A stretch of DNA of 64,000 nucleotides from Gammaproteobacteria bacterium (GTDB lineage: Bacteria; Pseudomonadota; Gammaproteobacteria; Eutrophobiales; Eutrophobiaceae). Each line of letters starts with the position of its first letter. Positions within the stretch are counted from its first letter, which is position 1. Shown here one piece after another: positions 28,281 to 53,856 of this stretch. The translations under genes and the position numbers were made by a program. The stretch covers positions 2,080,001-2,144,000 of the forward strand of contig OZ244905.1 of assembly GCA_965221695.1 (NCBI GenBank). Direction: 5' to 3'. The notes under the pieces are model-generated. The model was not told the origin of the DNA. It was given only the letters and a program-made list of their open reading frames with translations, and did no database searches.

Positions 28281-29675
28281 TCATAATGCCTTCCAGCGGG
28301 CGCCGGGACCACGTCCCGTGGATTCGGCCAAACTCTTGGACTTCAGAATAGCAAGGTCTTCTCGCACGCGTCGCACGTTCATCTGCTGACCTAATAGAGC
28401 GCGTATTTCCCGGAGCGCAAGAGCATGGTGGGAACGACGCAACAGCGACAGGACCGCGTCCTGTTGTTCTGTCAAACCACTTGCGAATTGTTCATCTGCC
28501 ACATGGTCTGCCCGCCGGAAACGGACGGTGACAGAATCGCCACGTTCCTCAATTTCAGGGCAGGGCAAGCCAGCGGAGGTCGCCAAATCTGCCATTCTTA
28601 GGGTGCCCCGACCCCACTCCTCAATGATGCCGCGGCGGTAGAACGTGCGCGCAATCAGCGGGTTCCACGGACGAGACTCGTGCGGACTGAACAGAGCGTC
28701 CGGCGTCAGTCCGAAGTGCAGTGGGCCCGTGGAGGTCACCTCCAAGCGGTCATCGTAAACAGCGAGACCAATCGAGCCGCCACCCATTGCATAGTCGCGA
28801 TGGCACAGGGCGTTAGCGATCGCTTCACGCGTGGCAAGCGGCGGATATAGTGGCTCGTCGATACGCTGCATTCTGCCTGAGACGAAGCGGCTCGCGATCG
28901 GCAAAGTATCACGGAGGAATCGTTGGGCATTTGCAAGAAGCGTGAAAGCATTGCCGATGAATTGCCGGTTGTCCAAGAACTCTGATCTGTCGAAGCCCCG
29001 AAAGCGTGCTACGCGGAGCAGACATTGCGGCATATCACATTCCAGTCGCTCTGCCTTGCCAAACAGTGCTGCCGCCGCCCGGAAAAGGACTCCGTCTCGC
29101 ATGAGTCCCAAGCCGTGTAACAGATCTTTCGGGTCCCGGCTGCCCGGTTCGTTCAGGCGTCCATTTAACACCGCCTCAGCGACCGTGTTACGGAGTTCCG
29201 CCACATCCAAGTCATCGATAGTCCACCCAGCAGCAGGCTGGTTTTCCCAACGTAGATCATTGTGCATACGTTCGAAGAGCAGGCGGTTGTATTCATCGGT
29301 AGACATGCTCAGGGTTGTGTTTCCGACACGTCGGTAAGATACTCCCCGATACTGATACGGAAGAGATGAACCTGGACTGACGCGAATTGCTATCACCTCG
29401 CGTACCTCTGAGATTCGCACCCTCTCTATCTCAGGAAATGCCGGCGGATCGATCCGTTGTATCTCCGCGCTTACCTCCTCGAGCGTGCGATCACTTACCT
29501 GCTGGCCTTGCACATTGCCCTCCTGCGTGACACCAAAGAGCACATGTCCACCCCGATAATTGAGCATAGCGCAAATTGTCCTCGCGGCCTCGCGTCGGGT
29601 TCCCGTCGTGGCCTTGAACTCCAGCTTTTCAGATTCCCCGGACGCAACAAGCGCCATAACTTGCTCAGGTGTCAT
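28281..29675 (-). CDS. Schlafen/AlbA_2 + HATPase_c_4 + wHTH protein
   Basis: GESEKLEFK, ICAMLN..GG.VLFGV, REAIANALCHRDY, NPLIA..FYR.G.IE.WGRG. Confidence 0.85.
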   Translation of the reverse strand: MTPEQVMALVASGESEKLEFKATTGTRREAARTICAMLNYRGGHVLFGVTQEGNVQGQQVSDRTLEEVSAEIQRIDPPAFPEIERVRISEVREVIAIRVSPGSSLPYQYRGVSYRRVGNTTLSMSTDEYNRLLFERMHNDLRWENQPAAGWTIDDLDVAELRNTVAEAVLNGRLNEPGSRDPKDLLHGLGLMRDGVLFRAAAALFGKAERLECDMPQCLLRVARFRGFDRSEFLDNRQFIGNAFTLLANAQRFLRDTLPIASRFVSGRMQRIDEPLYPPLATREAIANALCHRDYAMGGGSIGLAVYDDRLEVTSTGPLHFGLTPDALFSPHESRPWNPLIARTFYRRGIIEEWGRGTLRMADLATSAGLPCPEIEERGDSVTVRFRRADHVADEQFASGLTEQQDAVLSLLRRSHHALALREIRALLGQQMNVRRVREDLAILKSKSLAESTGRGPGARWKAL

Positions 29676-29910
29676 CTATAGGATTACCGTCATCGATTCT
29701 ATGTCCGTTATTCTAGGCCTTGCCCGTCCTTCTCAATTTGTATTACTTGACTACCACATCATAGCATCAGTAAGAATACGCTACTACTCTCTCTCTCTTG
29801 CACTCTCTCTCTTGCAGTAGAGACCTCGTCACCATCTCCCCGCATATTGATTAATGTATATATTTCTTGCGCTATATAATATGCAAGAATAAAGCGTGTC
29901 GGAGGAGGTC

Positions 29911-30958
29911 ATGGCTCCACAACAAATAGGCAAGCGGATCAAAGCGCTTCGCGACAAGCGCGGACTTTCCCAGGACGAACTTGCGCGTGAGTTCGGCTTC
30001 AAAGACCGACAAACCCTATCCGCCATTGAGACCGGGGTTCGCCGCGTGACCGCAGAAGAACTTGTGCTTGCAGTCGAAATACTGGAAGCGGCACTCGGGA
30101 GTCGAACCAGCGAAACTCAATGAGTATGAACGCGATGCAAGCCGCTGGATAGCAGCATATCGCACGCTGGCACCATAGGTCGGACGTGATACTCCACTGA
30201 TGCGCCAGGCGCTGGGTCTGACCCGCCACTCGAGTTTTGAAGATGCCGCGTTTATCGGCGAACGGTTTGTAACCAAGTTCAAACTTGGCGACACGCCGGC
30301 AATGCGTCTTGCCGAAATCATGCAGCAGGAGCTGGACATCCTGGTACTCATGGTCGATACCTGCGAGGGTATTTCCGGCGCGGCTTGCCGCCTGCCTGAC
30401 CTGGATACCGTCCTGATTGCGCGCCATGAGATCGAGGGGCGCCGCCATTTCGATCTCGCGCACGAGTTGTTTCACATCCTCACCTGGGATGTTATGCCGC
30501 CTGAGCATTATGAAGAAATACTGGAAACCGGCGGCAATCGGGTGGAACAGCTTGCCAACAGCTTCGCTTCTGCGCTATTGATGCCAAGTGCGGTCTTGGA
30601 AAAATACGGGGATTGGTCGAGCTTGGCAGAAAACGAACTTATCGCAAAGCTCAACACCGTGGCGGACGAATTGCGCGTCACCTCTTCGGCACTACGCTGG
30701 CGACTGGTTACGCTCGGTAAACTGAAACCAGCCGTGGCGCGCGCCTTGCCAGACGCCGCTTTGCGCAACAATGGCCGCAAAGTCGCGGCGGACGAGCCTC
30801 CACCCCTGTTTTCCAAACCATTCACCGAAGTCCTGGGGCTTGCCATTCAGCAAGGAATTGTATCGGTGCGTCGCGTAGCCGGATTGCTAAATCTTACCGT
30901 GGACGATCTGGCGGATTTATTCGCCGCGCACGGCGTCGACTGTGCTATCGAGTTGTGA
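29911..30958 (+). pseudogene. XRE-HTH + ImmA/IrrE metallopeptidase fusion, frameshifted
   Basis: HTH (LSQDELA...TLSAIETG), frameshift near 30097, in-frame TAG near 30176, then AHELFH peptidase domain. Confidence 0.8.
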
Positions 30959-31023: not shown

Positions 31024-31554
31024 CTAAGACAGTTTGAAGGATACGGGTTGGTCGGATGGATCAGTCGGTTTATAAATCTGAAGGCGATTTTGGATTTCTG
31101 AATCAGGCAATCGGCATCTTGAGTGAGCTGCGATCTTTTGCAGGCCAACATACAAATCGTCACCACCCACAATGCCTTGAGCCAACATCTGATCGAACAG
31201 CCACAAAACACCGTGGCAAGCGACATCCTCTTCCTTGGCGAGCTTGCGCAATCTTCCATCGCCGGAGAGCAATGTCCAAGAGTTAGTCTTTGCCAAGCTG
31301 AGAGCGAAGCTGTCGGGCAGGGAAAGTGTCGGATCATCACGACGGTAACTCATAGCGAGTGAAACCGCATTACCATCAAGTTCCTCAATCCGAAGTCCAA
31401 GTCCGAGCAGTTCCGGCCCACCATATTCTTTAAGTTCGCGTTCATAAAGCAAATCAGGAACGGCAAAGCCGAAATCCAGACGAAAAACTTGCCTCAGAAG
31501 TTCGCCACGCTCAAGGTCGATAAGAACCGAAGTATCCGACACCAGGACATTCAC
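31024..31554 (-). CDS. PIN-domain protein (DUF3368-like)
   Basis: VSDTSVLID, ERE, SLPDSFAL, LLSGDGRLR; 4-bp overlap with the upstream gene. Confidence 0.85.
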   Translation of the reverse strand: MNVLVSDTSVLIDLERGELLRQVFRLDFGFAVPDLLYERELKEYGGPELLGLGLRIEELDGNAVSLAMSYRRDDPTLSLPDSFALSLAKTNSWTLLSGDGRLRKLAKEEDVACHGVLWLFDQMLAQGIVGGDDLYVGLQKIAAHSRCRLPDSEIQNRLQIYKPTDPSDQPVSFKLS

Positions 31555-32648
31555 TGGGCATGGGCTTCGTCAGCAGCGGCCTTTATAGCGGGAGGCTCAT
31601 CCATCAGGCGATTCAACTCGCGTGCGGAGATACCGAGTAATTCGGCAGCCTTGGCTTCGGATATTGCACCTTCCGACAAGGCGCGAAAACACAGCCGTTC
31701 GAACCGCGAGGGTTGCTCTCCGGGCATGGCATACGGCTCCTGGTATGGAGGGTTGCGCCATCCAAGGCGATCGAATTCGTTGAACAGATGCCGAAAGAGG
31801 GAAGTGTCGAAGATCCCAAGATCCTTGCAACGGTAGGTCAGGGCCTGAACACTCACGCCAAATAACCTCTTGAGATCGAACAGCTCACCCCAGCCGATGG
31901 ACTTGCGGTGTTTGCCCATCTCAGCCCGCAACGTCTCAGCCGGCATTAAGAACGCGCCGGCGAAGCGATGCGCGGCTTTTTCTCCATCAACCTTCGGCGC
32001 TGGCTCAAGGGCCATATGGCCGAGTTCATGCGCGAGGGTGAAACGCTGACGCTCGCCCCAATCGTCCTGGTTCACAACCACAACCGACGCGACGCGCTTG
32101 TCTTCGCGGCGCACGCGCGCGGCAAGCCCCTCGATGTTGGGAAGACTCATTGTGAACACCTTGATTCCGCGCTCTTCCAGAAGTTCGACCAAGTTCGGGA
32201 TAGGATCAAGTCCGAGATTCCAATGAACTCGCATGCCATACGCAGCCTGCTCTGCTTCGGCGGGGTCGCGCAGCACCGGCCAGGGCGCATCACGTGGTAT
32301 ATCCCAGGCAACGGTAGGCAATCCCAAGATTTCCTCAACTGTCAGATAACGTTCCAGCAGACGCAGGATGTTAGCCTCGACCTGTGCCTCATCACGACGA
32401 CTGGTTAGCCGCTTCTTTCGGAAATCAACGGCTTCCAGGCGAATGTCACTACTGCTTATCAGGTAGTCAATGGGCACATTGAGCGCATCGGAAAGCGCGA
32501 TGAGCACGCCGGAACTCGGCACGGACTCATCATGCTCGTACTTGCTGATCGCCTGCGCCGTCACCCGGTTGCCAATTCTGGCTGACAAATCCCGAAGTGA
32601 CAAACCGGAAGCACGGCGTGAAACCATTATGCGTTGGCCTAAACTCAT
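31551..32648 (-). CDS. XRE-HTH + ImmA/IrrE Zn-metallopeptidase fusion
   Basis: GLSLRDL...AQAISKYE HTH; RQRFTLAHELGH; A.RFAGAFLMP; FGVS. Confidence 0.9.
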   Translation of the reverse strand: MSLGQRIMVSRRASGLSLRDLSARIGNRVTAQAISKYEHDESVPSSGVLIALSDALNVPIDYLISSSDIRLEAVDFRKKRLTSRRDEAQVEANILRLLERYLTVEEILGLPTVAWDIPRDAPWPVLRDPAEAEQAAYGMRVHWNLGLDPIPNLVELLEERGIKVFTMSLPNIEGLAARVRREDKRVASVVVVNQDDWGERQRFTLAHELGHMALEPAPKVDGEKAAHRFAGAFLMPAETLRAEMGKHRKSIGWGELFDLKRLFGVSVQALTYRCKDLGIFDTSLFRHLFNEFDRLGWRNPPYQEPYAMPGEQPSRFERLCFRALSEGAISEAKAAELLGISARELNRLMDEPPAIKAAADEAHAQ

Positions 32649-32665
32649 TATTCTCCCATACTTTA

Positions 32666-32705
32666 TAGTTGATAAATATCACATATGAGAAATATTTGTC
32701 AACTA
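32666..32705. promoter_or_regulatory. Palindromic operator in the divergent promoter region
   Basis: tagttgataaatat-N12-atatttgtcaacta (1 mismatch in 14 bp). Confidence 0.7.
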
Positions 32706-32777
32706 ACGGGTTGAAAACTGTTGCTACATCCCCATCATTTATGAAATGACATATATTACTTATTAGAGATTACTACC

Positions 32778-33938
32778 ATGACTGCTCAGATTTTGTTTTT
32801 TTCCGTCGGAAATGGCGATATGACCTTCATCAAGACAGAGGAAGGCCGAAGAATATTGATCGATATGAACATTCGGTCCGCCGCGGATGATCTCAATGAT
32901 GATACTCCCGACGTTGCAGCGAAGCTACGAAAAAACCTCGTGCGCGACGATGCGGGAAGGCTTTATATCGATGCGTTGCTTATCAGCCACCCTGACGAAG
33001 ACCATTGTCGCGGTTTGCGCAAGCACTTCCACCTCGGACCGCCTGGTAAATGGTCAAAATCAACGGATAAGATACTTATCAGGGAGGTATGGTCTTCGCC
33101 GATGGTATTCCGTAGAGCATCACGACAGCATATCCTATGCGACGATGCAAAAGCTTTTAACACCGAAGCAAAGCGTCGTGTAAGGGTATTTAGGGATACA
33201 CCTAATATAGTAGGAGGTGGCAACCGCATCCTCATACTTGGAGAGGACGAGGATGGCAAAACAGATGACCTCCGTCAGATTCTTGTGCCCTTGGATCATC
33301 CGTTCTCGCAAGTCAACGGGCAACATGACGAATCAATGACTGCCCTTTTGCTCGCTCCATTACCGGCCGACGATGACGATGAAGAAGAGGTCATGTCAAA
33401 GAACAATTCCAGCACGATATTGCGGTTTTCTCTTGTTGGAAACGGGAAAGCAGAGAAATGCCGTTTCCTTACTGGAGGAGATGCTGGGGTCGTGATCTGG
33501 GACAAGCTCTGGCTTCGCCATTCCAAGCATATAGACTCTTTGTCCTACGACATTCTGCTCTCCCCGCACCACTGCTCTTGGCATAGTTTGTCGCACGATA
33601 GCTGGAGCGAGTTGGGCGAAAACGCAAAGGTTTCCAACGATGCGCTCAATGCCCTCTCGCAAGCTCGCAGCGGAGCCACGATTGTCGCCAGCAGCAAACC
33701 GATCAAGAACGACAACAATGACCCACCATGCATTCGGGCCAAGCGCGAGTACGAAAAGATCGTGGAAAAAGTATCAGGACGATTCGAATGTGTCGGTGAA
33801 CACCAATCCGCAAGAACTTCGGGTGTCTTGGAATTCGAAGTCGGCGCAAACGGTATTCGCTTAGTGACCTCTATGATGGCCCCCCGCATAGTGTCAGGTT
33901 CCGGGACCATCGGTCGGCAGCCCCATTCGCACGGCTAG
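32778..33938 (+). CDS. Metallo-beta-lactamase-fold (ComEC-like) hydrolase with a Gly-terminated tail
   Basis: VGNGD, SHPDEDH, NNSS, GGDA, PHHCS; ends ...GSGTIGRQPHSHG*. Confidence 0.85.
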   Translation: MTAQILFFSVGNGDMTFIKTEEGRRILIDMNIRSAADDLNDDTPDVAAKLRKNLVRDDAGRLYIDALLISHPDEDHCRGLRKHFHLGPPGKWSKSTDKILIREVWSSPMVFRRASRQHILCDDAKAFNTEAKRRVRVFRDTPNIVGGGNRILILGEDEDGKTDDLRQILVPLDHPFSQVNGQHDESMTALLLAPLPADDDDEEEVMSKNNSSTILRFSLVGNGKAEKCRFLTGGDAGVVIWDKLWLRHSKHIDSLSYDILLSPHHCSWHSLSHDSWSELGENAKVSNDALNALSQARSGATIVASSKPIKNDNNDPPCIRAKREYEKIVEKVSGRFECVGEHQSARTSGVLEFEVGANGIRLVTSMMAPRIVSGSGTIGRQPHSHG

Positions 33939-33946
33939 CTCTGAAT

Positions 33947-36223
33947 ATGGCCCGGAGCGAAATTAAACAGGAGCTTCGGCGCGCTCTGGTCTTGATCCGC
34001 GCACACCCGGCTGTTAAAGCGTGTAGCGCACCAAAGACCAATGGGATGAGCGATACCATCACGGTCGATGTGACTTTCAACGTTGAACTACCCAGCGAGT
34101 GGCGGCGCCTAGGTAGAAGCCCTTTTGGTATCATGCTTCAAGAGGAAGTACGAATTGTGTTTCCAAATGGATTTCCCTTGGAGCCGCCTGAATTTTCGTT
34201 GCGAGCGGACTTCAATCGGAATCTCCCTCATATGCAACCGTGGTTGTCAGATGGCCGTCCTGTCCCTTGTATCTACCGCGGTGACCTGGCCGAGTTGCTA
34301 CAGCGAGAGGGACTGGCTGCTATTCTCAACCAGATGGCAATTTGGCTCGAACGCGCTGCCCTTGGTACTTTGATCGATCCGGATCAGGGTTGGGAACCGG
34401 TGCTTCGTGATTCGTTTGCGGACATCCTGGTCGCAGATGCAGCATTTTTACAGGACTTAGTAGACCGGCGAGGAGGTCATCGGTTCGTAAAGATGAAGTA
34501 TATTAAGTCGACTACTGACGATGGTTCACCGCTCCTGCAAGGGCAAATCATTAATGACATCGCTCCGGTGAATCGTCAGACAATTTGCGGTTATTTTAAT
34601 ACGATGGAGGTCACTAACGAGCGCATGGTGAGTTATGGCCAGTCGCTGGCGTTGGTAGTTTGGCCAGGCAAACATCCTTCGGGAAAGCCAGTCATCAATG
34701 ACACATATCTCCCTGAGACGGTGAAAAATGTTAAGGGTCTCAGGGTACGAGCTGAGGGGTACGCATGCAGACAACAACTAGATGCTGGTCTAAACCAATT
34801 GAGAACCTGCATGCCCGCGCTGCGATCGTCGGGACCACACACGTTGGCGGTCATCCTATTGGTGCGTCGGCCATTTCCCATCATTGGAAGCAAGAGCCCA
34901 ATTGAACTTTGTCCGTATGTTATGGAAGTTTGGTTCCCGCAACTGTTCGCCAACGGTGAAGCTACGGCTGTTCGCGCGGCTGCTCAACGCAATGCCATTT
35001 CCCAAGATTTGCTTGCCCAAATGGCAGGACTGAATTCGGGAGACGAAGCTCTCTCATGGACACTCGTCGGCGCGGGTAGTCTGGGCTCTAAAATCGCGCT
35101 TCATCTGGCGAGAACTGGAAACGGTCCGAATGTCGTCGTTGATAAGTCTATAATGTCGCCACACAACGCGGCTCGTCACGCTCTTGTGCCAACTCCCGAT
35201 GGATTACAGGTGACCTGGACCGATATGAAAGCGCGGATATTGTCGCAAGCGTTGCAAGGTCTTAACCAAACAGCTATCCCAATCTCGGAAGATGCGATGC
35301 AAATATTGACAACCGGAAAGAACACCCAAGGGGCTTGGTCGAAAAAGACCTGGGCGGTATTGAACGCGACAGCATCTCATGTGGTTCGTGAGGCTTTCGG
35401 AGCGAGCAACAACATACCCACACGGGTTATCGAGGTATCGTTATTCGCTGGCGGGAAGATAGGAATAGTTGCAGTAGAAGGCCCGCACCGGAATCCGTCT
35501 ACCATCGATCTGATAGCAGAGTTCTACGGTATTCTGAAAGAGCAGCCAAAGCTCGCATCGATCGTCTTCGACCGCGATGCTTCAGTATCACGCCAAGCCA
35601 CCGGACAAGGATGTGGTTCACTCACGATGAGCATGTCGGACGCAAGGCTCTCGCTGTTCGCAGCCGGAATGTCGGAATATCTCCTGTCCCGGCAGCAAAA
35701 AGGGCTACCGGAAGATGGAGGTGAAATCCTCATCGGCCAATTGACTCAAGACGGACTTGGTCTGACTTGGCATACCTACCGAACACCCGCAGTAGTCGTG
35801 GTTCAGACGGACAAAGGAGAAGCTTGGAGCATTCATATTCACCCTCGGGCACGCTTAAAGATACAGCAAGAGATGTCCCGCTGGCATGAAGTAGAAACAG
35901 GCGGCGTACTCATGGGAAGGCTTTCAGAGACAGCGCGGGTGGCGCATGTCGTGGATGTGTTAGAACCACCGGATGACAGTCGTCGTGCGACTGAAGAGTT
36001 TGTTCTAGGAAAGACAGGATTATCCAAAAGGCTACAGGAATACTCGGAGACTGTCGGCTGGTCGCTACACTGCCTCGGAACTTGGCACAGCCATGTCTCT
36101 GAGGGCGGACCGTCCAGAAAAGATCGAGCTACAGCAAAAGAAGTGGCATTCGCTCGGTTGACGCCCTCTTTTTTCCTGATCGTAACCCCTGCAGGCTTCC
36201 ACGCGATCATGGCCAGTGGATAA
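33947..36223 (+). CDS. E2 - E1(ThiF) - JAB fusion protein (Cap2/Cap3-like)
   Basis: E2: FP..PP, LPH, PCIY; E1: VGAGSLGS, D....HN.ARH, GQGCGS; JAB: ETGG, WHSH....PS..D. Confidence 0.9.
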   Translation: MARSEIKQELRRALVLIRAHPAVKACSAPKTNGMSDTITVDVTFNVELPSEWRRLGRSPFGIMLQEEVRIVFPNGFPLEPPEFSLRADFNRNLPHMQPWLSDGRPVPCIYRGDLAELLQREGLAAILNQMAIWLERAALGTLIDPDQGWEPVLRDSFADILVADAAFLQDLVDRRGGHRFVKMKYIKSTTDDGSPLLQGQIINDIAPVNRQTICGYFNTMEVTNERMVSYGQSLALVVWPGKHPSGKPVINDTYLPETVKNVKGLRVRAEGYACRQQLDAGLNQLRTCMPALRSSGPHTLAVILLVRRPFPIIGSKSPIELCPYVMEVWFPQLFANGEATAVRAAAQRNAISQDLLAQMAGLNSGDEALSWTLVGAGSLGSKIALHLARTGNGPNVVVDKSIMSPHNAARHALVPTPDGLQVTWTDMKARILSQALQGLNQTAIPISEDAMQILTTGKNTQGAWSKKTWAVLNATASHVVREAFGASNNIPTRVIEVSLFAGGKIGIVAVEGPHRNPSTIDLIAEFYGILKEQPKLASIVFDRDASVSRQATGQGCGSLTMSMSDARLSLFAAGMSEYLLSRQQKGLPEDGGEILIGQLTQDGLGLTWHTYRTPAVVVVQTDKGEAWSIHIHPRARLKIQQEMSRWHEVETGGVLMGRLSETARVAHVVDVLEPPDDSRRATEEFVLGKTGLSKRLQEYSETVGWSLHCLGTWHSHVSEGGPSRKDRATAKEVAFARLTPSFFLIVTPAGFHAIMASG

Positions 36224-37032
36224 GGGGACAGAGGGCCTGGGAATATGTTGAATGTGTTGACTTACCTGCTCGACCCATATGAGCGAAAGGCGAGGCACTA
36301 CCCTGCGCTGCTGTGTGGACTACCCTTATTGGTATCGGTCGTGCTGTTGATTCCCGAATTTGGCGCGGTGTGGGGAGCTATTGGTGGGTTCGCTATTTTT
36401 TGCGGCGGTACGACTTTTCTGGCCCAGATCACCCGGGACCGGGGAAAGACTATGGAGCCTAAACTGTATGCATTGTGGGGTGGCAAACCATCTGTAGCCA
36501 TGTTACGCCATGCCGACTCACGACTTAACCCGTCGACGAAGAACCGCTACAGAACATTCTTGCAACGGGTTGTGCCCGAATTGACGCTGGCTTCTGTCGA
36601 GGAGGAACAGGCAAACTCCAAAGGTGCTGATCAGGGATATGAAAGCACTATCTCGTGGCTACTGGCCAGGACGAGAGATCGTGAGCGCTTTGGACTCCTG
36701 TTTCGAGAAAACATCAACTATGGCTTTCGCCGAAATATCTGGGCACTCAAACCTTGGGCATTTGCCATGGAAGCGATCGCTTTGGTCATTATTGGGATAT
36801 CGGTCCTCGAATTGTGGACGGGAGAGTTCTTGGCTTCGATCCAGATGCTCGGTATGGAAACGTGGGCGAGTCTCATACTCACAATAATCCATGTATTGTT
36901 CTTCACATTCAGAATTAACAATGAGTGGGTTGCGTATTTCACTGAATCCTGCCACCCGTTTCACGTGAAGGCTGCCACCCGGAACGCAGCAAAGCTGCCA
37001 CCCCCCGGCGCGTGATGACGTGGGTATTGTCA

Positions 37033-37791
37033 TTATGACTCTGTTGGGGTCATGGCCGTCAATGTTTTTTTCTGTTTTCGCATGGATTCTCCCTTGAGGT
37101 TGATTTTATACGCATTGTGTACCAGGCGGTCGAGGATGGCATCGGCGAGTGTGGGGTCGCCGATCATGGCGTGCCATTTTTCGACCGGCAGTTGACTGGT
37201 TGCCAGAGTGGAGTGTGCGCCGTGGCGGTCTTCGAGGATTTCGAGCAGGTCGCGGCGATGTTCGGTGGTCAACTTGACCAGTCCCCAGTCATCAAGGATG
37301 AGGAGTTGTGTTCTGGCCAGGGTGTGGATGAGTTTGGGGTAGCGCCCATCGCCTTTGGCAATAGTGAGGTCCTGGAGGAGTCGGGGCAGGCGCAGGTAGA
37401 GGGCGGTGTAGCCGGTCCGGCAGGCGCTGTGCGCCAGGGCGCAGGCGAGCCAGGTTTTCCCGACGCCGGTGGGGCCGGTGATGAGGATATTGAGGTGGTC
37501 ACAGAGCCATTGGCAGGTGGCCAGGGATTGCATCAGGGCTTTATCCAGTCCGCGCGGGTGGAGGTAATCGATGTTCTCGATGGTGGCCTGGTGTTTGAGT
37601 CGGGCGCGTCGCAGTCGGCTGGCGGTGCGCCGGTTGTGGCGCTCGGTGAGTTCCCGGTCGACGAGCAGGCCGAGGCGTTCCTCGAAGGTCAGGGCGTCGA
37701 TATCGGGCAGGGCCATTTGCTCGGTGAGGGCGGCCGCCATCCCGGTGCATTTCAGGGTGTGGAGTTTGTCCAGGGTTGGATGTGTCAGCAT
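37033..37791 (-). CDS. istB: IS21 helper ATPase
   Basis: GPTGVGKT, LLILDDWG, ADAILDRLVH. Confidence 0.95.
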   Translation of the reverse strand: MLTHPTLDKLHTLKCTGMAAALTEQMALPDIDALTFEERLGLLVDRELTERHNRRTASRLRRARLKHQATIENIDYLHPRGLDKALMQSLATCQWLCDHLNILITGPTGVGKTWLACALAHSACRTGYTALYLRLPRLLQDLTIAKGDGRYPKLIHTLARTQLLILDDWGLVKLTTEHRRDLLEILEDRHGAHSTLATSQLPVEKWHAMIGDPTLADAILDRLVHNAYKINLKGESMRKQKKTLTAMTPTES

Positions 37792-37810
37792 AGCGCTCTC
37801 CTGTTGTGGG

Positions 37811-39352
37811 TTAGTGGTAATAGGTCGGACCACGGATATTGTCGTGCGCCGCGGGGAGCTCCATCTCGGTCTGCTCGGTCAGGGGTTGGTTGTCGAGGCC
37901 GTGGCGGAGGATGGATTCGATACTCTTGTAGCTGTGGCTGCCCAGGGTCAGAGCGCGTCGGCAGGCGGCGTTGAGCCGGTCATTGCCGTAGGTGTTACTC
38001 AGGCGCAGGATTCCCAGACAACTCCGGTAGGCTTGCTGGGGGTGTTTGCGGGCCGTCAGCCGCTGGCGGACCAGCCGTGCCGTGGCCGCACCGATACGGA
38101 CGGCCCAACGTTCCAGGCGTTGCGGGGACCACTCGCCGGCCTGCCGGTGTGCCTCGGGCATATGGGCCGGGACGGTGGTATGGCGGCCTTTATGGTGTGT
38201 GCGCCGATGGCTGGCGATGCGCTGGTTGCGGTAGAAGCACTCAATGGTGTTGGCGGTGATGCGCACCTCCACCTGTTTTTTAATAAACGCATGCGGCACT
38301 GAGTAGTAATGGCCGTGCACCTCGACGTGATAATCAATATGGACCCGGGCCTGCTTCCACTCGGCGTACTCATACGCATCGACCGGCAAGGGGCGCAGGG
38401 CCGGTTTATCCAGTTGCGCAAACAGGGCGCACCGACTGCCCGGCAGTTTCCTGAAGGGGCGCCGGTTGAGCCGCACCAGCAACTCGCCTATGGCCCGGTT
38501 CAACTCGGCCAGGGAGAAGCACTGACGGTGACGCAACGCAGCCAGGATCCAGCGCTCCACCACCTGCACCCCGACCTCGGCTTTCGCCTTATCCCGGGGC
38601 CGGCGCACCCGCGCCGGAATGATGGCCACCCCGTAATGCGTGGCCAGGTCCTGGTAGGTGGGGTTGATGTCCGGCTCATACCGATGCGCCTTACTCACCC
38701 CGGCGCGCAAATTGTCCGGCACCACCACCTCCGGCACACCGTCCAAGTAGGTAAAACAGCGTACATGCGCGCCGATCCAGTCTGCCAGACCCTGGGTCCA
38801 GGTGGCCTCAGCATAGGTGTAGTTCGATGCGCCCAGCACCGCCACGAAGATGTTTGCCTCTCGCACTGCCCCGGTTACCCGGTCGATAACCTGGGCATGC
38901 ATCCCGGCATAATCTACGAACAGCTTCTCACCGGCATGGTGGGTCTGGCGCATGACCAGGTCCAGCTTGCCGGCCCAGGCCCGGTACTGTTGGCAGAACC
39001 AGGTATACTGGTAGCCGTGCGGATGAGTCCGACGATATTCCTGCCACAGCAGCATCAACGTCACGCCCGGACGTTTCAGTTCCCGGTGCACAGCCGCCCA
39101 ATCGGGCACCCCGCGCGCCCTAGCCGGCTGGACCGGCGGGGGCGGAAACAGCAGGCGATCCAGTGCCCTGTCATCCAACTCAACCGGCAACGGCCAATGC
39201 AGCCCGGCCGCCTCAGCCCGGCGCAGGTATTCATTTACCGCCGGACGGGATATGCCACAACTCCTGGCCGTTTGGCGTTTGCTCAGGCCCTGGCCCCAGC
39301 ACAAGCGTAATACGTCTTTTATCTTTCTCATGGACAACCTCTTTGCAGGCAT
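37811..39352 (-). CDS. istA: IS21 DDE transposase
   Basis: N-terminal [22 protein letters not shown]. Confidence 0.95.
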
Positions 39353-39741
39353 CTGCGGTTCCTCCTTTCAATTGAAACAAGGACACAGGATACCTGTGGT
39401 TATCCACGTCAGACGCGCCGGCTATCTACCTCCTTGGGGGTGGCAGCTTTGCCGTGTAATGGGTGGCAGCTTTCGTGTGAAATGGGTGGCAGCTTTGCCG
39501 TGTAATCGGTGGCAGCTTTGCTGTGAAATACGCAAGTGGGTTCGGATCGCTGCTGAAACCTACGCTCGGCAGCTTCTTTCGACATGTGATTTGCTTGAGG
39601 ACGGTCATGAGGTTTGATCAGGTCAGTGCTCCCAGCAAAATCGGCAATGAAACAAACCTGAAACCAAACGACATTTTCTAGACGTTTTTCGTAATTGATG
39701 TGTAAGATTGATCTTATTTTGTAAATTAGGAGACCTCGTTA

Positions 39742-40533
39742 ATGATCTTGGTTGACGGCGCATATCTTTACGGCTTAGGTCTGTCTATACAGCCTTTGCA
39801 CACAATTAATCAGAAGGGAACATATGGTCAGGTATGGTACAACTGTTACGTTGCGAAAAACTATCTTGAAGGATTTATTACAGATAGCGATTATTCAGAT
39901 GCCGTCAGAATCATGGTAGAGCCAGCAAATTCTTTAATTTTCGCACTTGAAACAATATGTGAGGAAGCAATTAAACCAGAAAAAAAAGATAAAATACTAG
40001 ACCCGACACTTTTTTACAACTTAAGAACAGTATTGCGAGATTTTGAGTCTGTTTTCAAAGCTGAGTTCAGACATGGTAATTTATTTCTTGCTACTCAAAA
40101 GGGGGCATATGATCTTAGAACACTATTTGCGAAAGGTGAGTTACTATTCCCAGCAAATTTTACGGAATTGTTCCCAGAAGCAGTTAAAGATGTCCAAGAC
40201 GGAGCGCGCTGCTTGGTATTTGAGATGTATACCGCATCGGGATTCCACTTTCATCGTGCAAATGAAAGTGTGCTATTAAGGTATCTGAAATCAGTTCGCG
40301 CAAAACAACCTGATAATAGAAACATGGGCGCATACATCGAAGCCCTTAAGGACGTCGAAAATGTTCCCAAGGAAATAATTGTGTACTTGAAGAGTTTAAA
40401 AGATTTGCAACGAAATCCTTTAATGCATCCGGGAGAATCTATTGATAATGTAGACGATGCGCTTGCTCTACTAAATGCAGTTCACACTGCTATTACGGCG
40501 ATGATGAGAGAAATAGCCTCACAACATGATTAA
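39742..40533 (+). CDS. Hypothetical protein with a C-terminal HEPN-like domain
   Basis: HRANESVL and R-x4-H motif RNPLMH; low GC; AGGAG RBS. Confidence 0.6.
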   Translation: MILVDGAYLYGLGLSIQPLHTINQKGTYGQVWYNCYVAKNYLEGFITDSDYSDAVRIMVEPANSLIFALETICEEAIKPEKKDKILDPTLFYNLRTVLRDFESVFKAEFRHGNLFLATQKGAYDLRTLFAKGELLFPANFTELFPEAVKDVQDGARCLVFEMYTASGFHFHRANESVLLRYLKSVRAKQPDNRNMGAYIEALKDVENVPKEIIVYLKSLKDLQRNPLMHPGESIDNVDDALALLNAVHTAITAMMREIASQHD

Positions 40534-40656: not shown

Positions 40657-43600
40657 ATGACCGCCCAACACCAATCCTCCATCAGCTTCACATCCACCGA
40701 TGATGATTCGCAACCGGTAACCCCCGGCTTGCCGGCCAGCCGGGTTCACGCCGAGCTGCGCCGGTTGGCCGACAGCCATCACGCGCAGGGGAAACAGTTC
40801 GAGCGTGTGATGGTCCGTTATTTCCAGCAGTCGGTGCTGTACCGGGATAAACTCAAGAGCGTGCAGTTGTGGGACGAGTGGGCAGGCGCACACGGGATAG
40901 ACGGGCGCGATGTCGGCATCGATCTGGTGGCCCAGACCCATGACGGGGAGTACTGGGCCATACAATGCAAGTGTTACGCGAACACGCACACCCTGCAAAA
41001 ACGCGATATTGACTCCTTTCTCTCAGCTACCGGCAAGGAGTGGGGGGATAAGAATATCCCGTTCTCACAGGTGCTGGTGGTCTCCTCCACGGCGAACTGG
41101 TCGGTACATGCAGAGCGGGCCATTGAGAATCGCAAGCCGCCCTGTCATCGTCTGGACTTGGCTGAGCTGAGCGACGATGCGGGCACGGACTGGTCGGCGC
41201 TGCTGCCGGATTTGGAACTTGAAAAGGCCACGCCGCGCCAGTTACGCCCCCATCAAAGGACATCGGTGGACGATGTCACAGCAGGTTTCACCACAGCCGA
41301 CCGGGGCCAACTCATTATGGCCTGCGGCACTGGCAAGACCTACACGTCTCTTAAGATCGCTGAACGCCAGGCCGGCGCTGGCGGCCGTATATTGTTCCTG
41401 GTGCCTTCGCTGTCGTTGCTCTCACAATCCCTGCGCGAGTGGGCGGCTCATCACGAATGGGCCGGGCTCCGCACCTTTGCCGTGTGCTCGGACAGCAAGG
41501 TCGGACGCAACAATGAAGATATCAATGCTTACGACCTGGCCATCCCACCCACTACGGACGGGCGCAAACTGGCGGACGGTCTGCAAAGCGACCTGCCGGA
41601 CGGACACGCGCAACTGGTGTTTGCGACCTACCAGTCCATCGGGGTGGTGCATGAGGCTCAGCAGCAAGGCGCGTTGCCCTTTGATCTCGTGATCTGCGAT
41701 GAGGCCCACCGCACCACCGGCGTGGACCTCAAGGGCGAGGAAGCCTCTTACTTCACTCGAGTGCACGACGGCGATTACCTCAAAGCACACAAGCGTCTGT
41801 ACATGACCGCGACCCCACGCATCTACAAGGACAGCGCCAAGCAACGCGCCAGGGAGAAAGACCAGGTCGCGGAGATCTACTCCATGGACGATACGGACAA
41901 ATACGGCGATACCCTCCACCGGCTGGATTTTTCAGAGGCGGTAGCCAAGGACCTCTTGAGCGACTACAAGGTGCTGGTGTTGATGGTGAACCAGGATCAC
42001 GCCGACGCCGCGCTGCAACCGCTGCTTGGCGGCAGCGCCAATATCAACCTGGACGATGCGTCGAAGATTGTCGGTTGCTGGAACGGCCTGTCGAAACGCA
42101 TAGCCGATGAAGAGGCGCTGCCGCAAACAGACACTGCGCCCATGCGCCGGGCGGTGGCCTTCTGTCAGACCATCAATATGTCCAAGGCCGTGGCGCAGAC
42201 TTTCTCAGGAATTGTGAATCAATACCGGGAAAGCTCCCCTGACGATGAGGAAGCGCTGGGGTGTACCGTCGAACATGTTGACGGCACCCAAAATGCGCTG
42301 AAACGGAACCAGGCGCTGGAATGGCTCAAGGACGAGCCAGGTGAGAACGAATGCCGGATACTAAGCAACGTGCGCTGCCTGTCCGAAGGCGTGGATGTCC
42401 CGGCGCTGGACGCAGTACTGTTTTTAAGCCCCCGCAACTCACAGGTGGATGTCGTTCAGGCCGTGGGGCGTGTCATGCGCAAGGCAGAGGGCAAGGAATA
42501 CGGTTACGTGATTCTGCCGGTCTGCGTCAAACAGGACAGCTCACCCGAGCAGGCATTGCAGGATGAAAAGAACTACAAGGTGGTCTGGCAGGTGTTGCAA
42601 GCCCTGCGCGCCCACGATGACCGGTTCAATGCCGAGATCAACAAGATTGAACTCAACAAGCGGCGGCAGGGACGCATCAATGTCGTCGGGATCGGCTTCG
42701 GCGGCGATGGGGATGGCGACGACAGAGAGCGCGGTGGCGGAGAGGAAGAGATCCGCGAACCGTTGCAACTCCCGATAAACCTTAAGGACCTGAAAGAAGC
42801 CCTGTACGCCAGGCTGGTCCTGAAATGCGGCGACCGCCGCTACTGGGAGAGCTGGGCTAAGGATGTGGCCGATATTGCCGGACGCAATATCACCCGTATC
42901 ACCACGCTAGTCGGGCAGAGTGATGCCGATTACCGTGAGATCTTCGAGGAGTTCATGACGGAGTTGCGCCAGAACATCAACCCTCAAGTATCAGAAGCGG
43001 ACGCCATCGAAATGCTCGCCCAGCACCTGATTACCCGCCCGGTATTCGATGCGCTGTTCGAGGGCTATTCATTCATCAAGAACAACCCGGTTTCAAAGAC
43101 CATGCAGGCGATGCTGGAATTGCTTGATGAGCAGAACCTTGAGACCGAAACCAGGAGCCTGCAGGGCTTCTACGACAGCGTGCGCCGGCGCGCCAGCGGC
43201 ATCGACAACGCCGAAGGCCGGCAGAAGGTCGTGATCGAACTCTACGAGAAATTCTTCAAAGAAGCCTTCCCTAAGATGGCCGATAGCCTGGGGATTGTCT
43301 ACACACCGGTTGAGATTGTGGATTTCATCCTGAAAAGCGTCAACGACCTGCTGGTGCAGGAATTCGGTGGTGAACACCTCTCATCAGAAAATGTGCATGT
43401 GCTGGACCCGTTTACCGGCACCGGCACTTTCATCACGAGACTGCTGGCCTCCGACCTGATCACGGATACAGCGCTGGCGCGCAAGTACCGGCAGGAACTG
43501 CATGCCAACGAGATTGTCCTGCTAGCCTATTACATCGCTGCGGTGAACATTGAGGAGACCTACCACGAACGCTTGCGGGAGAAACTCAGAAAGGATGAAA

Positions 43601-45621
43601 AAGAAACAGACATCGACTACGAATCATTTCCCGGGATCGTGCTGACCGACACGTTCCATATCAACGAGCAAGACGGCGACATGCTGAACCAGATATTTCC
43701 GATTAACTCCGAACGGGTGATGAAACAGAAGGACACGCCTATCCGGGTAGTGTTGGGCAACCCGCCATATTCGGCAGGACAGAGCAGTGCCAATGACAAC
43801 AACGCCAACCTGCGTTATCCCGGACTGGATAAGAGCATTGCAAGAAGTTATGCCGCGCATTCCACGGCCACCCTGAAAAACAGCTTGTACGACTCCTATA
43901 TCCGGGCCTTCCGCTGGGCGTCAGACCGCATCGGCGATGAGGGCATCATTGCTTACGTGAGCAACGGTGGCTGGCTCGACGGTAACGCCATGGATGGATT
44001 CCGCCGCTGTTTGGCAGAGGAGTTTAACCGAATCTACTGTTTCAACTTGAGAGGAAACCAGCGCACTTCCGGTGAGTTATCTCGCAGGGAAGGCGGCAAG
44101 ATATTTGGGTCAGGCAGCCGCGCCGGCATCACACTGACGTTCCTTGTCAAAAAGAAGGATGCCAAAGGCGAATGCCAGATCCGCTACTACGACATCGGCG
44201 ATTACCTTGACAGGAATCAGAAACTGGACACCATCAGGGACTTTGTAAGCATCGGAAACATGGAGGACCTCTGGGAAACGATAACACCGAACAAACACCA
44301 TGACTGGATTAACCAGCGCAGTGAGGTGTTTCTGGACTACCTTCCACTGGGCGTTAAGGAAAACAAACGCAACAAGCGAACAGTGGACAGTGTATTTACC
44401 CTGTATAGTCGAGGTGTTGCGACAAGCCGTGACGCTTGGGTGTACAACTTCTGCAAAGAAACACTTTCAAATAACATGCAAAAAACCATTTCGTTTTACA
44501 ACAGTGAGGTGGAGCGTTATCGGCTGGCATGTGAAGAAAAAAGGGAGAACGAGCGACCAGAGATAAAGGATTTTATCCATTATGACGCGACCACAATGAG
44601 TTGGGATAGGGAAATTAGAAATGATCTCAGACTCCTTAAAACTGGCCAATACCATGATTCTAAGATAAGAACTGGAATCTATAGGCCATTCACAAAACAA
44701 CAGTTTTATTTTGACGACCAGTTTAACAACATGGTTTGTCTTCAGCCAAAATTTTTCCCGACCCCTAACACACAAAACCTCGCCATCTGTGTCTCCGGCA
44801 TCGGCGCCAGCAAGGACTTTTCTGCGCTGATGGTGGATACCATGCCTGATTTGAATTGTCTTGATGCTGGCACGCAGTGTTTTCCCCGCTACCACTATCT
44901 CTCAGCCGACGAACAGGAAAAGCAAGCCTCGCTGGACATGGGTGAGACGAAACACCCCCGGGTAGACAACATCCCCCAGGAGACGGTGACCCGGTTCCAG
45001 GAGCAGTACCGGAACAGCGCCATTGATGCCGATGCCATCTTCTATTACGTCTACGGCCTGCTGCACAGCCCCGACTACAAGACCCGGTTTGCCGCGGATC
45101 TCAAGAAGATGTTGCCCCGAATCCCTCTCGTCGACAGCCCAGAAGACTTCCGGCGGTTTTCCGAGGCCGGCAGGGCGCTGGCCGACCTCCATGTCGGCTA
45201 TGAGAACATAGAGCGTTGGCCACTGACCATCCGGATTGACAAGAACCAACAGGAAAAAGATAACCAGCACACAGAGCAGGGTAGTCAGGATGATGAGACA
45301 CTGTACCAGGTGAAAAAGATGACCTTCGGCGGCAGCGCCCGGCCCCCTGACAAGACGACCATCCGCTATAACGACCACATTACCATCGAAGCGATCCCGC
45401 CAGATGCCTACAGGTATATCGTCAACGGCAAGAGCGCCATTGAATGGATCATGGAGCGCTACCAGGTCACACAACACAAGGAAAGCAAAATCATCAACGA
45501 CCCGAACAAATGGTCCGATGATCCCCGATACATCTTGGAACTACTCGGAAAAGTGGTGACCGTCAGCATGAAGACGGTAGAGATTATATCCGGACTGCCC
45601 GAACTGGAAAAAGCTACATAA
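40657..45621 (+). CDS. Type ISP single-polypeptide restriction-modification enzyme (LlaGI/LlaBIII-like)
   Basis: Mrr-like nuclease D.GID...IQCK, helicase MACGTGKT/DEAH/QAVGRVMRK, MTase DPFTGTG and NPPY, C-terminal TRD; 1654 aa. Confidence 0.93.
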   Translation: MTAQHQSSISFTSTDDDSQPVTPGLPASRVHAELRRLADSHHAQGKQFERVMVRYFQQSVLYRDKLKSVQLWDEWAGAHGIDGRDVGIDLVAQTHDGEYWAIQCKCYANTHTLQKRDIDSFLSATGKEWGDKNIPFSQVLVVSSTANWSVHAERAIENRKPPCHRLDLAELSDDAGTDWSALLPDLELEKATPRQLRPHQRTSVDDVTAGFTTADRGQLIMACGTGKTYTSLKIAERQAGAGGRILFLVPSLSLLSQSLREWAAHHEWAGLRTFAVCSDSKVGRNNEDINAYDLAIPPTTDGRKLADGLQSDLPDGHAQLVFATYQSIGVVHEAQQQGALPFDLVICDEAHRTTGVDLKGEEASYFTRVHDGDYLKAHKRLYMTATPRIYKDSAKQRAREKDQVAEIYSMDDTDKYGDTLHRLDFSEAVAKDLLSDYKVLVLMVNQDHADAALQPLLGGSANINLDDASKIVGCWNGLSKRIADEEALPQTDTAPMRRAVAFCQTINMSKAVAQTFSGIVNQYRESSPDDEEALGCTVEHVDGTQNALKRNQALEWLKDEPGENECRILSNVRCLSEGVDVPALDAVLFLSPRNSQVDVVQAVGRVMRKAEGKEYGYVILPVCVKQDSSPEQALQDEKNYKVVWQVLQALRAHDDRFNAEINKIELNKRRQGRINVVGIGFGGDGDGDDRERGGGEEEIREPLQLPINLKDLKEALYARLVLKCGDRRYWESWAKDVADIAGRNITRITTLVGQSDADYREIFEEFMTELRQNINPQVSEADAIEMLAQHLITRPVFDALFEGYSFIKNNPVSKTMQAMLELLDEQNLETETRSLQGFYDSVRRRASGIDNAEGRQKVVIELYEKFFKEAFPKMADSLGIVYTPVEIVDFILKSVNDLLVQEFGGEHLSSENVHVLDPFTGTGTFITRLLASDLITDTALARKYRQELHANEIVLLAYYIAAVNIEETYHERLREKLRKDEKETDIDYESFPGIVLTDTFHINEQDGDMLNQIFPINSERVMKQKDTPIRVVLGNPPYSAGQSSANDNNANLRYPGLDKSIARSYAAHSTATLKNSLYDSYIRAFRWASDRIGDEGIIAYVSNGGWLDGNAMDGFRRCLAEEFNRIYCFNLRGNQRTSGELSRREGGKIFGSGSRAGITLTFLVKKKDAKGECQIRYYDIGDYLDRNQKLDTIRDFVSIGNMEDLWETITPNKHHDWINQRSEVFLDYLPLGVKENKRNKRTVDSVFTLYSRGVATSRDAWVYNFCKETLSNNMQKTISFYNSEVERYRLACEEKRENERPEIKDFIHYDATTMSWDREIRNDLRLLKTGQYHDSKIRTGIYRPFTKQQFYFDDQFNNMVCLQPKFFPTPNTQNLAICVSGIGASKDFSALMVDTMPDLNCLDAGTQCFPRYHYLSADEQEKQASLDMGETKHPRVDNIPQETVTRFQEQYRNSAIDADAIFYYVYGLLHSPDYKTRFAADLKKMLPRIPLVDSPEDFRRFSEAGRALADLHVGYENIERWPLTIRIDKNQQEKDNQHTEQGSQDDETLYQVKKMTFGGSARPPDKTTIRYNDHITIEAIPPDAYRYIVNGKSAIEWIMERYQVTQHKESKIINDPNKWSDDPRYILELLGKVVTVSMKTVEIISGLPELEKAT

Positions 45622-53740: not shown

Positions 53741-53856
53741 TGACAGGCATAAATGAATGATTTATACATTATTATCAGTTTGCTGCCACTCACCTATCAG
53801 CAAATAGGTATTATTTATTCTCAATCGCCTTGTGTAATTATTATCAGGAATACATC

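Follow-up and report, generated by a model that had tools for sequence, protein, structure and literature searches.

Which protein is joined to its target by a ubiquitin-type ligase whose operon encodes no ubiquitin-like protein? The question is raised by a locus in a gammaproteobacterial genome (NCBI GenBank assembly GCA_965221695.1), in which 64,000 nucleotides of contig OZ244905.1 (positions 2,080,001 to 2,144,000 of the forward strand), hereafter the window, contain a short operon for a metallo-beta-lactamase (MBL)-fold protein, a single chain that joins E2, E1 and JAB domains, and a small protein with four transmembrane (TM) segments. The locus is a copy of the named 6A-MBL anti-phage defence operon and lies within a defence island; its core, the MBL protein plus the E2-E1-JAB chain, is not new and matches operon type 6a as described by Iyer et al. 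2006. The core is ordinary; what modest interest the locus has lies in a membrane partner that is near-universal, uncatalogued and drawn from interchangeable families, and in the natural knock-out of that partner in this genome. The reading that we favour, and regard as likely when taken as a whole, is that of a 6A-MBL operon whose MBL enzyme is ligated by its own tail and has a membrane-protein partner. In window coordinates, the three genes are:

32778-33938, forward strand: gene 1 (MBL), 386 aa, C-terminus ...IGRQPHSHG, from the open reading frame (ORF) list and translation
33947-36223, forward strand: gene 2 (E2-E1-JAB), 758 aa
36245-37015, forward strand: gene 3 (4-TM), present ORF 256 aa

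Both core genes are recognized by curated models. Gene 1 reaches 420.2 bits against NCBIfam NF058524 ('anti-phage 6A-MBL system MBL-fold protein', cut-off 220), its residues 7-359 aligning with model positions 1-346, and gene 2 reaches 564.6 bits against NF058523 ('anti-phage 6A-MBL system cap2_3 protein', cut-off 320). Each model is of the equivalog type, and NCBIfam has models for no other protein of the system. Scores this far above the cut-offs bear out the initial annotation, made from the sequence of the locus, which had called the core not wholly new and had named the 6A-MBL system. The same gene pair stands in row 6a of Table 1 of Iyer, Burroughs and Aravind 2006 (PMC1779556), the origin of the name as far as the accessible text of that paper goes. 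In the accessible portions of later sources, 6A-MBL is placed among the known jumbo-phage defences of Pseudomonas aeruginosa (10.1101/2025.09.30.679545), is credited to van den Berg et al. 2024 in a review (PMC13276650), and appears as '6A_MBL' in a defensome survey (PMC13700489). The system occurs in this literature in passing mentions, and it was found to print nothing about a third gene or about the MBL protein's terminal Gly; supplements might hold such data.

The genes of the operon are separated by 8 nt (gene 1/gene 2, 33939-33946) and 21 nt (gene 2/gene 3, 36224-36244), in agreement with the tight three-gene operon that had been annotated, and gaps so short cannot hold a ubiquitin-like gene. 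The family of nucleotidyltransferases resembling cGAS and DncV (CD-NTases; Pfam SMODS) has no match across the 3.54-Mb genome, and no nucleotidyltransferase family was found among the scanned proteins around the operon, so the annotated lack of a ubiquitin-like modifier or nucleotidyltransferase nearby also holds. For comparison, related loci were taken as the best 80 of 387 confirmed relatives (600 matched stretches), a sample biased to relatives of at least 49% identity because the search was made with a closer, 22-sequence MBL alignment. The MBL and ligase genes lie next to each other in the same direction, and in 76 of the 80 loci a ligase match was found downstream on the same strand. The system is distributed patchily: among 126 genomes from this order, the 4 that carry 6A-MBL all belong to one genus.

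6A-MBL operons almost always include a third gene, for a small multi-pass membrane protein. A third gene was counted when an ORF of 120-380 aa with at least two hydrophobic segments started just 3' of the ligase, and loci were evaluable (72 of them) when they had a ligase ORF of at least 500 aa with 700 nt or more of sequence downstream of it; the other eight had too little sequence (L029, L031, L034 and L051) or no ligase ORF of that size (L033, L042, L053 and L062). Such an ORF lies directly downstream of the ligase in 57 of the 72 evaluable loci, versus 6 of 89 controls, for which the same downstream rule was applied to other flank ORFs of at least 400 aa. The initial annotation had expected the membrane gene to accompany the pair, and these counts agree with it.

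The product of gene 3 has four hydrophobic segments (residues 21-39, 41-59, 172-190 and 202-220), as the 4-TM description had it. The family features a conserved soluble insert of ~110 residues between TM2 and TM3, which bears nearly all its invariant polar residues (R88, D91, R101, E121, E155, N156, R162, R163 and N164), and then a conserved C-terminal helix. Searches of Pfam, PADLOC and NCBIfam returned no match for gene 3; its relatives number 201 at E<=0.001 and are typically 253 aa long. An all-alpha model of an intact homologue (predicted local distance difference test score, pLDDT, 88.8) retrieved nothing significant from the PDB (best E 0.23, with bestrophin and MotA-type matches at a TM-score of at most 0.31) and unnamed clusters only from the ESM Atlas. 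By tblastn the family is present in 43 of the 80 loci, mostly directly 3' of the ligase. Its position is upstream with reversed strand in 7 loci and upstream with unchanged strand in 1, and linkage that survives such rearrangement argues for a function.

The slot after the ligase is not reserved for this one family; in loci without it, the place is usually taken by a different small multi-pass membrane ORF. At least three membrane-protein groups without mutual homology detectable by hhalign occupy it, the clusters being:

Slot cluster 2: 38 loci, gene 3's own family
Slot cluster 13: 3 loci, joined to cluster 2 by hhalign at 91% probability
Slot cluster 3: 14 loci, ~212 aa, linked by hhalign to none
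Slot cluster 9: 4 loci, 174 aa, linked by hhalign to none
Slot singletons or unclustered: 10 loci

Two lysines, K68 and K99, are ~90% conserved in the gene 3 family. The cluster 3 family also contains a soluble insert, in which Arg, Asn and His residues are conserved, and is without any Lys conserved at 90% or above. The membrane protein had been considered as a universal Lys acceptor, and that candidate was down-weighted; since cluster 3 lacks such a lysine, the protein is less likely to serve as an anchor or target.

In the window itself, the third gene is split by an insertion sequence (IS) of the IS21 family, with the following parts:

36245-36930, forward strand: 5' part of gene 3, up to codon 229, after which the ORF runs 27 codons into the IS, to 37015
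36931-39534, reverse strand: IS21-family element, 2604 bp, with TG...CA ends and inverted plus multiple terminal repeats
37033-37833, reverse strand: istB (IstB_IS21, 5.9e-75, Pfam)
37811-39352, reverse strand: istA (rve and Mu-transpos_C_2, Pfam)
36924-36930 and 39535-39541: 7-bp target duplication of the IS
39542-39617, forward strand: 3' remainder of gene 3, consisting of the last base of codon 229, codons 230-253 (from 39543) and the stop

The tail encoded by the 3' remainder (...RIAAETYARQLLSTCDLLEDGHEV) is identical to residues 230-253 of P0121, an intact homologue of 253 aa that differs from the N-terminal part of the window's gene 3 at 2 of 229 positions; position 39617, at which the annotated operon had been made to end, is the stop codon of the IS-split gene. 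The severed stretch constitutes most of the last helix in the homologue model and holds residues conserved at 90% or above (A233, Y236, A237, L240, L241, C244 and D245). Because this conserved last helix of the membrane protein is lost, the present copy of the operon is probably disabled; the MBL and ligase genes are intact despite the IS in gene 3. A second copy of the element, 100% identical over 2604 bp, lies elsewhere in the genome (G000:C1:1958047-1960650), which indicates that the insertion is recent, and transposition is possibly ongoing. The IS21 insertion amounts to a natural knock-out of gene 3, and shows how such systems get switched off in nature.

The C-terminal tail of the MBL protein falls outside its curated definition, since NF058524 ends at residue 359, and yet the alignments place it among the most conserved features of the family. 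Among 120 close homologues (at least 66% identity), 100 end in HG and 19 in HG plus 1-11 residues (for example HGKGRP or HGNGKS), and one (P0020) is without the motif. A distant set was drawn from 150 listed representatives of 50%-identity clusters, 83 of them full-length (340-460 aa, 30-62% identity): 53 of the 83 end in [H/Y/F][G/A] (HG 24, YG 17, YA 11 and FG 1), and 21 have this dipeptide plus 1-12 residues. In a control family of unrelated membrane proteins (P0121-P0240), 2 of 120 end in [HYF][GA]. The conservation of the terminal Gly, on which the initial annotation had built its interpretation, is thus upheld, more exactly as a terminal [H/Y/F][G/A]. By analogy, a short variable extension after a conserved Gly resembles the pattern of ubiquitin-type precursors that are trimmed by a peptidase, and the accessible text of the Bub preprint (PMC11601596) gives JAB peptidases in bacterial pathways a precursor-trimming role. 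Two features of ubiquitin-like modifiers can be compared directly: the MBL protein has the flexible tail that ends in a conserved Gly or Ala and at times carries a short precursor extension, and it does not have the beta-grasp fold, its own fold being an MBL sandwich with ComEC as the best match. The protein may thus work like a modifier without being a member of the ubiquitin-like family.

Tail type and ligase type vary together. The tails in the 80 loci comprise 49 HG, 21 HG plus 1-8 residues, 4 [Y/F]A, 5 AG with or without an extension, and 1 run-on frame, L073 having been moved by hand into the AG class beside its sister L081. In all nine non-HG loci the ligase is either undetected by tblastn or matched over its E1-JAB part only, at 21-25% identity; a full-length ligase match, at 31-67% identity, was obtained by the same method in 67 of the 70 HG loci. 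The identity of the MBL core is comparable in the two groups (52-60% in non-HG loci versus 51-75% in HG loci). The diverged ligase of L045 belongs to a different clade of the same family, since it reaches 634.6 bits on NF058523. If the ligase recognises the tail, such covariation is to be expected.

Three of these loci (L046, L075 and L080) have an MBL protein ending in [Y/F]A followed by a shorter E1-containing protein (578-676 aa), and the E1-containing proteins of L046 and L075 give only 45-79 bits on the cap2_3 model; they may represent a sister system in which JAB is separate or absent.

The ligase encoded by gene 2 is organized as follows:

About 34061-34450, forward strand: E2 domain, residues 39-168, with Cys108 (PCIY); Pfam Prok-E2_A, 1.3e-26
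About 34985-35776, forward strand: E1 adenylation domain, with GxGxxG at 375-380 (GAGSLG), R410 and Cys556 (GQGCGS); Pfam ThiF, 369-442
About 35804-36196, forward strand: JAB/JAMM peptidase, with E650, H714, H716, S723 and D726 (WHSH..PS..D); Pfam Prok-JAB, 636-745, 4.7e-8

The ThiF match, at 25.3 bits, is under the Pfam cut-off of 28.1. Conservation was read from alignments of 65 and 48 ligases and of 61 diverse MBL sequences. Invariant in the 65 and again in the 48 ligases are C108, H95, P98 and P107 of the E2 domain, G375, G377, S378, G380, S381, D399, R410, K428, G553 and C556 of the E1 domain, and E650, H714, H716, S723 and D726 of the JAB domain. At all columns invariant in the 61 MBL proteins and in the two ligase sets the window residue equals the consensus, and the motifs quoted in the initial annotation (HPDEDH, PCIY, GAGSLG, GQGCGS and WHSH..PS..D) are all found in the translations, so its statement that the catalytic residues are intact is sustained. 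Because the E2 Cys, the E1 Cys and the JAMM residues are invariant, its phrase 'writer and eraser in one chain' appears to be a fair description of gene 2. Compared with solved structures, the ligase profile best matches type II cyclic-oligonucleotide-based antiphage signalling system (CBASS) Cap2 (7tsq, 7tsx and 7to3/7tqd, E about 1e-10), its JAB part matches a 156-residue 'Peptidase' (9ild), and MccB (E 1.2e-4) and TcdA (about 1e-3) are much weaker matches. PADLOC models find E1-E2 (2.5e-16) and JAB (4.9e-15) in gene 2, and NCBIfam adds weak ThiF/MoeB matches. A complex prediction for ligase residues 170-625 with the whole MBL protein (ligase alignment A3 and MBL alignment A1, the latter of 61 sequences) scored 0.00 in two uncontrolled runs and counts neither for nor against binding.

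The HPDEDH motif of gene 1 corresponds to H71-H76, and the residues invariant in the 61 diverse MBL proteins are D29, H71, D75, H76, E130, R133, R134, P194, D235, H264, H265 and S267. A Pfam scan gave no match in gene 1. Its AlphaFold2 model, built from the same 61 sequences (pLDDT 91.1, predicted TM-score 0.90), is an MBL alpha-beta/beta-alpha sandwich with a tail (residues ~363-386) that is disordered, its pLDDT being put at below 60 or at about 50-70. Among solved folds, 9ic4, the ComEC beta-lactamase-like domain, matches best (E 9.6e-14, target-normalised TM-score 0.73), with the phosphorylcholine esterase Pce as runner-up, and among solved proteins the sequence profile matches ComEC proteins only. 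The fold match to 9ic4 and these ComEC-only profile matches indicate that the MBL protein is a ComEC-type phosphodiesterase and most likely a nuclease.

A second, shorter MBL-fold gene (~280-356 aa) was seen near the operon in L009, L010, L067, L068, L071, L073, L077, L081 and L082, mostly directly 3' of the ligase and in some loci between the ligase and the membrane gene; that of L009 has weak matches to the Avs1a MBL and to ComEC.

We propose that a ComEC-like MBL phosphodiesterase takes the role that the CD-NTase has in type II CBASS and ubiquitin has in eukaryotes. The E1 domain, with its GxGxxG motif and R410, would adenylate the disordered MBL tail ending in His-Gly, and the tail would then move as a thioester, to E1 Cys556 and next to E2 Cys108, before being joined to an amine of a target, by which the enzyme would be primed or relocated. 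The JAB domain of the same polypeptide would remove the MBL adduct, and would also trim the extension of 1-12 codons past the Gly that is found in roughly one in five to one in four relatives. Judged from sequence comparison and modelling, this conjugation mechanism is probable. That the MBL protein itself is the modifier, through its terminal Gly, was already the proposal of the initial annotation; the conservation of the tail, its covariation with the ligase and its predicted disorder speak for this putative role, and what does not stand is its novelty. The conjugation idea is the field's stated assumption: in the accessible text of a 2024 preprint (PMC11601596), 'MBL pathways' employ a fused E2-E1 for attaching their enzyme to unidentified targets. 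What the comparative data add is numbers for what the literature asserts, namely that the MBL's own tail would be the ligated part, in the form of the terminal [H/Y][G/A], the precursor-like extensions and the covariation.

For the two other components we lean slightly towards the membrane protein as the effector that carries out the response, through membrane damage or abortive infection, and towards the divergently transcribed gene for a helix-turn-helix (HTH)-ImmA/IrrE protein as a stress-responsive switch of the CapH/CapP type. The third gene is read as an effector because unrelated membrane families swap in a fixed slot, as CBASS effectors do. Given how regularly a membrane gene accompanies the pair, tools with a two-gene definition of 6A-MBL may miss a functional component, and two-gene reconstitutions could fail or mislead.

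Several observations weigh against this interpretation. The terminal motif is missing in 9 of the 83 distant representatives, several of which match the query partly and look chimeric or truncated, and the covariation of tail and ligase comes from 9 loci that are kin to one another. The ComEC likeness leaves the substrate of the MBL protein unfixed, and the second-best fold is a phosphorylcholine esterase. A small multi-TM ORF is found in 69 of the 72 loci when upstream positions are included, a figure whose upstream counts have no matched control; two of the three remaining loci are near-misses, L061 with a partial tblastn match to the gene 3 family near the locus end and L071 with a 162-aa, four-segment ORF past the search window. 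What argues for the effector role is position and family swapping only, and the fold has no solved relative (best E 0.23, as above). The lack of a conserved Lys in cluster 3 counts against a universal acceptor role and is neutral on the effector role.

The alternative that survives best, and that we consider possible at a distinctly lower level of likelihood, is a CBASS-like signalling pathway: the MBL protein would be no nuclease directed at phage DNA but a signal generator, and the membrane protein would sense its small phosphodiester-derived product with its soluble domain and kill or arrest the cell, and conjugation would only tune the MBL protein, as Cap2 does for the CD-NTase. The accessible text of the Corbett-laboratory preprint indeed names the MBL protein a 'signaling enzyme' (PMC11601596). 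The soluble insert of the gene 3 family with its concentration of invariant polar residues, the comparable insert of the unrelated cluster 3 family with its conserved Arg, Asn and His, and the swapping of membrane proteins in the third slot, like that in CBASS effector slots, would all suit a receiver of such a signal. However, no recognisable ligand-binding fold was found in the membrane protein (the PDB search returned nothing significant), the swapped families have no common sensor domain, which is hard to square with one shared signal, and the nearest solved relatives of the MBL protein are the ComEC DNA nuclease domain and a phosphorylcholine esterase, with no cyclase or synthase among them.

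It is improbable, in our judgement, that ligation serves instead to tether the enzyme, with an Atg7/Atg3-like E2-E1 anchoring the ComEC-type hydrolase, through the terminal Gly, at the inner membrane, where the membrane partner or a lipid amine would be the attachment point, so that a split, inducible ComEC-like machine degrades entering phage DNA. Cap2-type ligases are described as Atg7-related in the accessible text of PMC11601596. The nuclease domain to which the MBL protein is closest is fused to a membrane channel in ComEC, a membrane protein is almost always encoded beside the MBL gene, and K68 and K99 of the gene 3 family would be available for attachment; the cluster 3 family, in the same slot, has no equally conserved Lys, however, and mutually unrelated membrane families fit effectors better than a specific docking site. 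We know of no evidence of lipid conjugation in bacteria of this type. Were tethering true, 6A-MBL would be a three-part machine in which the membrane partner, absent from the Pfam, PADLOC and NCBIfam models, is essential. Non-conjugating E1 chemistry on the MBL tail (thiocarboxylation as for ThiS/MoaD, or an MccB-like reaction), with E2 and JAB as scaffolds only, could be read into the MccB, TcdA and weak ThiF/MoeB matches of the ligase, but is very improbable given that Cap2 is by far the better match (1e-10 versus 1e-4 for MccB), that Cys108, Cys556 and the full JAMM motif are invariant in 65 homologues, which is unexpected for scaffolds, and that no sulfur-transfer or peptide-export genes were seen among the scanned neighbours.

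The favoured reading, of an MBL enzyme ligated by its tail and a membrane protein as effector, also includes a switch, for which the region upstream of the operon provides a candidate:

31551-32648, reverse strand: divergent regulator, 365 aa; HTH_3 at 10-62 (5.9e-14) and Peptidase_M78 at 157-274 (5e-19), Pfam
32649-32777: divergent promoter region, 129 nt, with inverted-repeat arms at 32667-32679 and 32692-32704 carrying TTGAYA...TGTCAA half-sites
31024-31554, reverse strand: PIN-like gene, 176 aa, with a 4-nt overlap with the regulator stop; Pfam PIN, 22.4 bits (cut-off 23.6)

The regulator is a fused XRE-type HTH and ImmA/IrrE metallopeptidase. Scanning the upstream divergent ORFs of 37 related loci plus the window (n=38) gave 18 with Peptidase_M78, 9 of which also have HTH_3, and 19 with WYL; single-linkage clustering had merged the WYL and M78 proteins, and the Pfam scan separated them. 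A divergent regulator is thus a common partner of the operon, in two alternative classes. The same two classes are known from CBASS, as CapH/CapP and CapW/BrxR. The PIN-like gene has homologues in 5 of the 80 loci by BLAST (6 by clustering) and might serve the regulator as an accessory or as a toxin-antitoxin-like partner. The 'five-gene variant' of the initial annotation, which counted the regulator as part of the system, was overstated in view of the rarity of the PIN-like gene and the two classes of regulator. In the intergenic region, the TTGACA-N22/23-TGTCAA arrangement recurs in the close loci L003 and L011, and the inverted repeat overlaps divergent -35-like hexamers; promoter-like hexamers on both strands number 5, versus 4.8 expected in shuffles. 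The TTGAYA-N22/23-TGTCAA repeat may be an operator or two back-to-back -35 boxes.

Around the operon, the defence island comprises, by Pfam, genes for DUF3226/TOPRIM, an SRAP peptidase, a Schlafen/AlbA_2 ATPase, a Type ISP enzyme, an AbiJ-like protein, a DEAD-box helicase, an OLD-like AAA_15-TOPRIM nuclease and an AAA_21 ATPase. Those with coordinates are:

24556-25221: DUF3226/OLD-like TOPRIM
28281-30958: Schlafen/AlbA_2 plus HATPase_c_4 (464 aa, reverse strand), with a pair of 75-aa HTH and 252-aa Peptidase_M78 proteins
40657-45621, forward strand: Type ISP restriction-modification enzyme, 1654 aa (Mrr-like nuclease, helicase, coupler, N6-methylase and Type_ISP_C), directly after the operon
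46857-47801: AbiJ_NTD4 plus DUF7014 protein
49033-52311: DEAD-box helicase, 1092 aa
52416-53114: trypsin-like peptidase
53830-55743: OLD-like AAA_15 plus TOPRIM ATPase
56011-57231: AAA_21 ATPase

The HTH and M78 pair at 28281-30958 is a second CapH/CapP-like regulator set, which possibly controls the AlbA_2 gene. Four island ORFs of 222-268 aa, all on the forward strand (39742-40533, 27025-27831, 45625-46293 and 48239-49036), have no match in Pfam. The G+C content falls to 0.39-0.49 in parts of the stretch that holds the defence genes (24556-57231).

Set beside the systems already named, the locus shares with 6A-MBL an MBL-fold gene directly 5' of a single-chain E2-E1-JAB gene, without a ubiquitin-like or nucleotidyltransferase gene. 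It differs from the 2006 description, which in its accessible text speaks of 'usually two genes' (PMC1779556), in that here and in most relatives a third gene for a small membrane protein is present, and that in this copy the third gene is split by an IS21-family element.

The likeness to type II CBASS is broad. Among solved structures the E1 domain of gene 2 is nearest to Cap2, and the JAB part has weak Cap3-type matches; the partner enzyme bears a flexible tail with a conserved Gly or Ala at its C-terminus, the regulators belong to the CapH/CapP (HTH plus M78) or WYL type, and swappable membrane proteins occupy the effector slot. Unlike CBASS, the 6A-MBL locus has no CD-NTase in the operon or genome, the partner being a ComEC-like MBL hydrolase, the functions of Cap2 and Cap3 are fused in one chain, and the third gene has no recognisable nucleotide-sensing domain.

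As for ComEC/Rec2, its C-terminal MBL nuclease domain is the best structural and the best sequence-profile match of gene 1, and the two have the same kind of metal-binding motif. The canonical MBL motif 2 is HxHxDH, whereas that of the 6A-MBL enzyme is HxDxDH; the gene 1 product is also a stand-alone, soluble protein without the OB fold and the competence channel domain, and it has a conserved [H/Y][G/A] tail, for which ComEC has no reason. The Bil and Bub pathways, as the accessible text of PMC11601596 describes them, likewise combine E1, E2 and JAB activities in islands of the phage-defence type, with a peptidase that exposes the reactive C-terminus and reverses conjugation. They differ from the present operon in having a dedicated beta-grasp ubiquitin-like protein, in whose stead 6A-MBL would use the tail of the enzyme itself.

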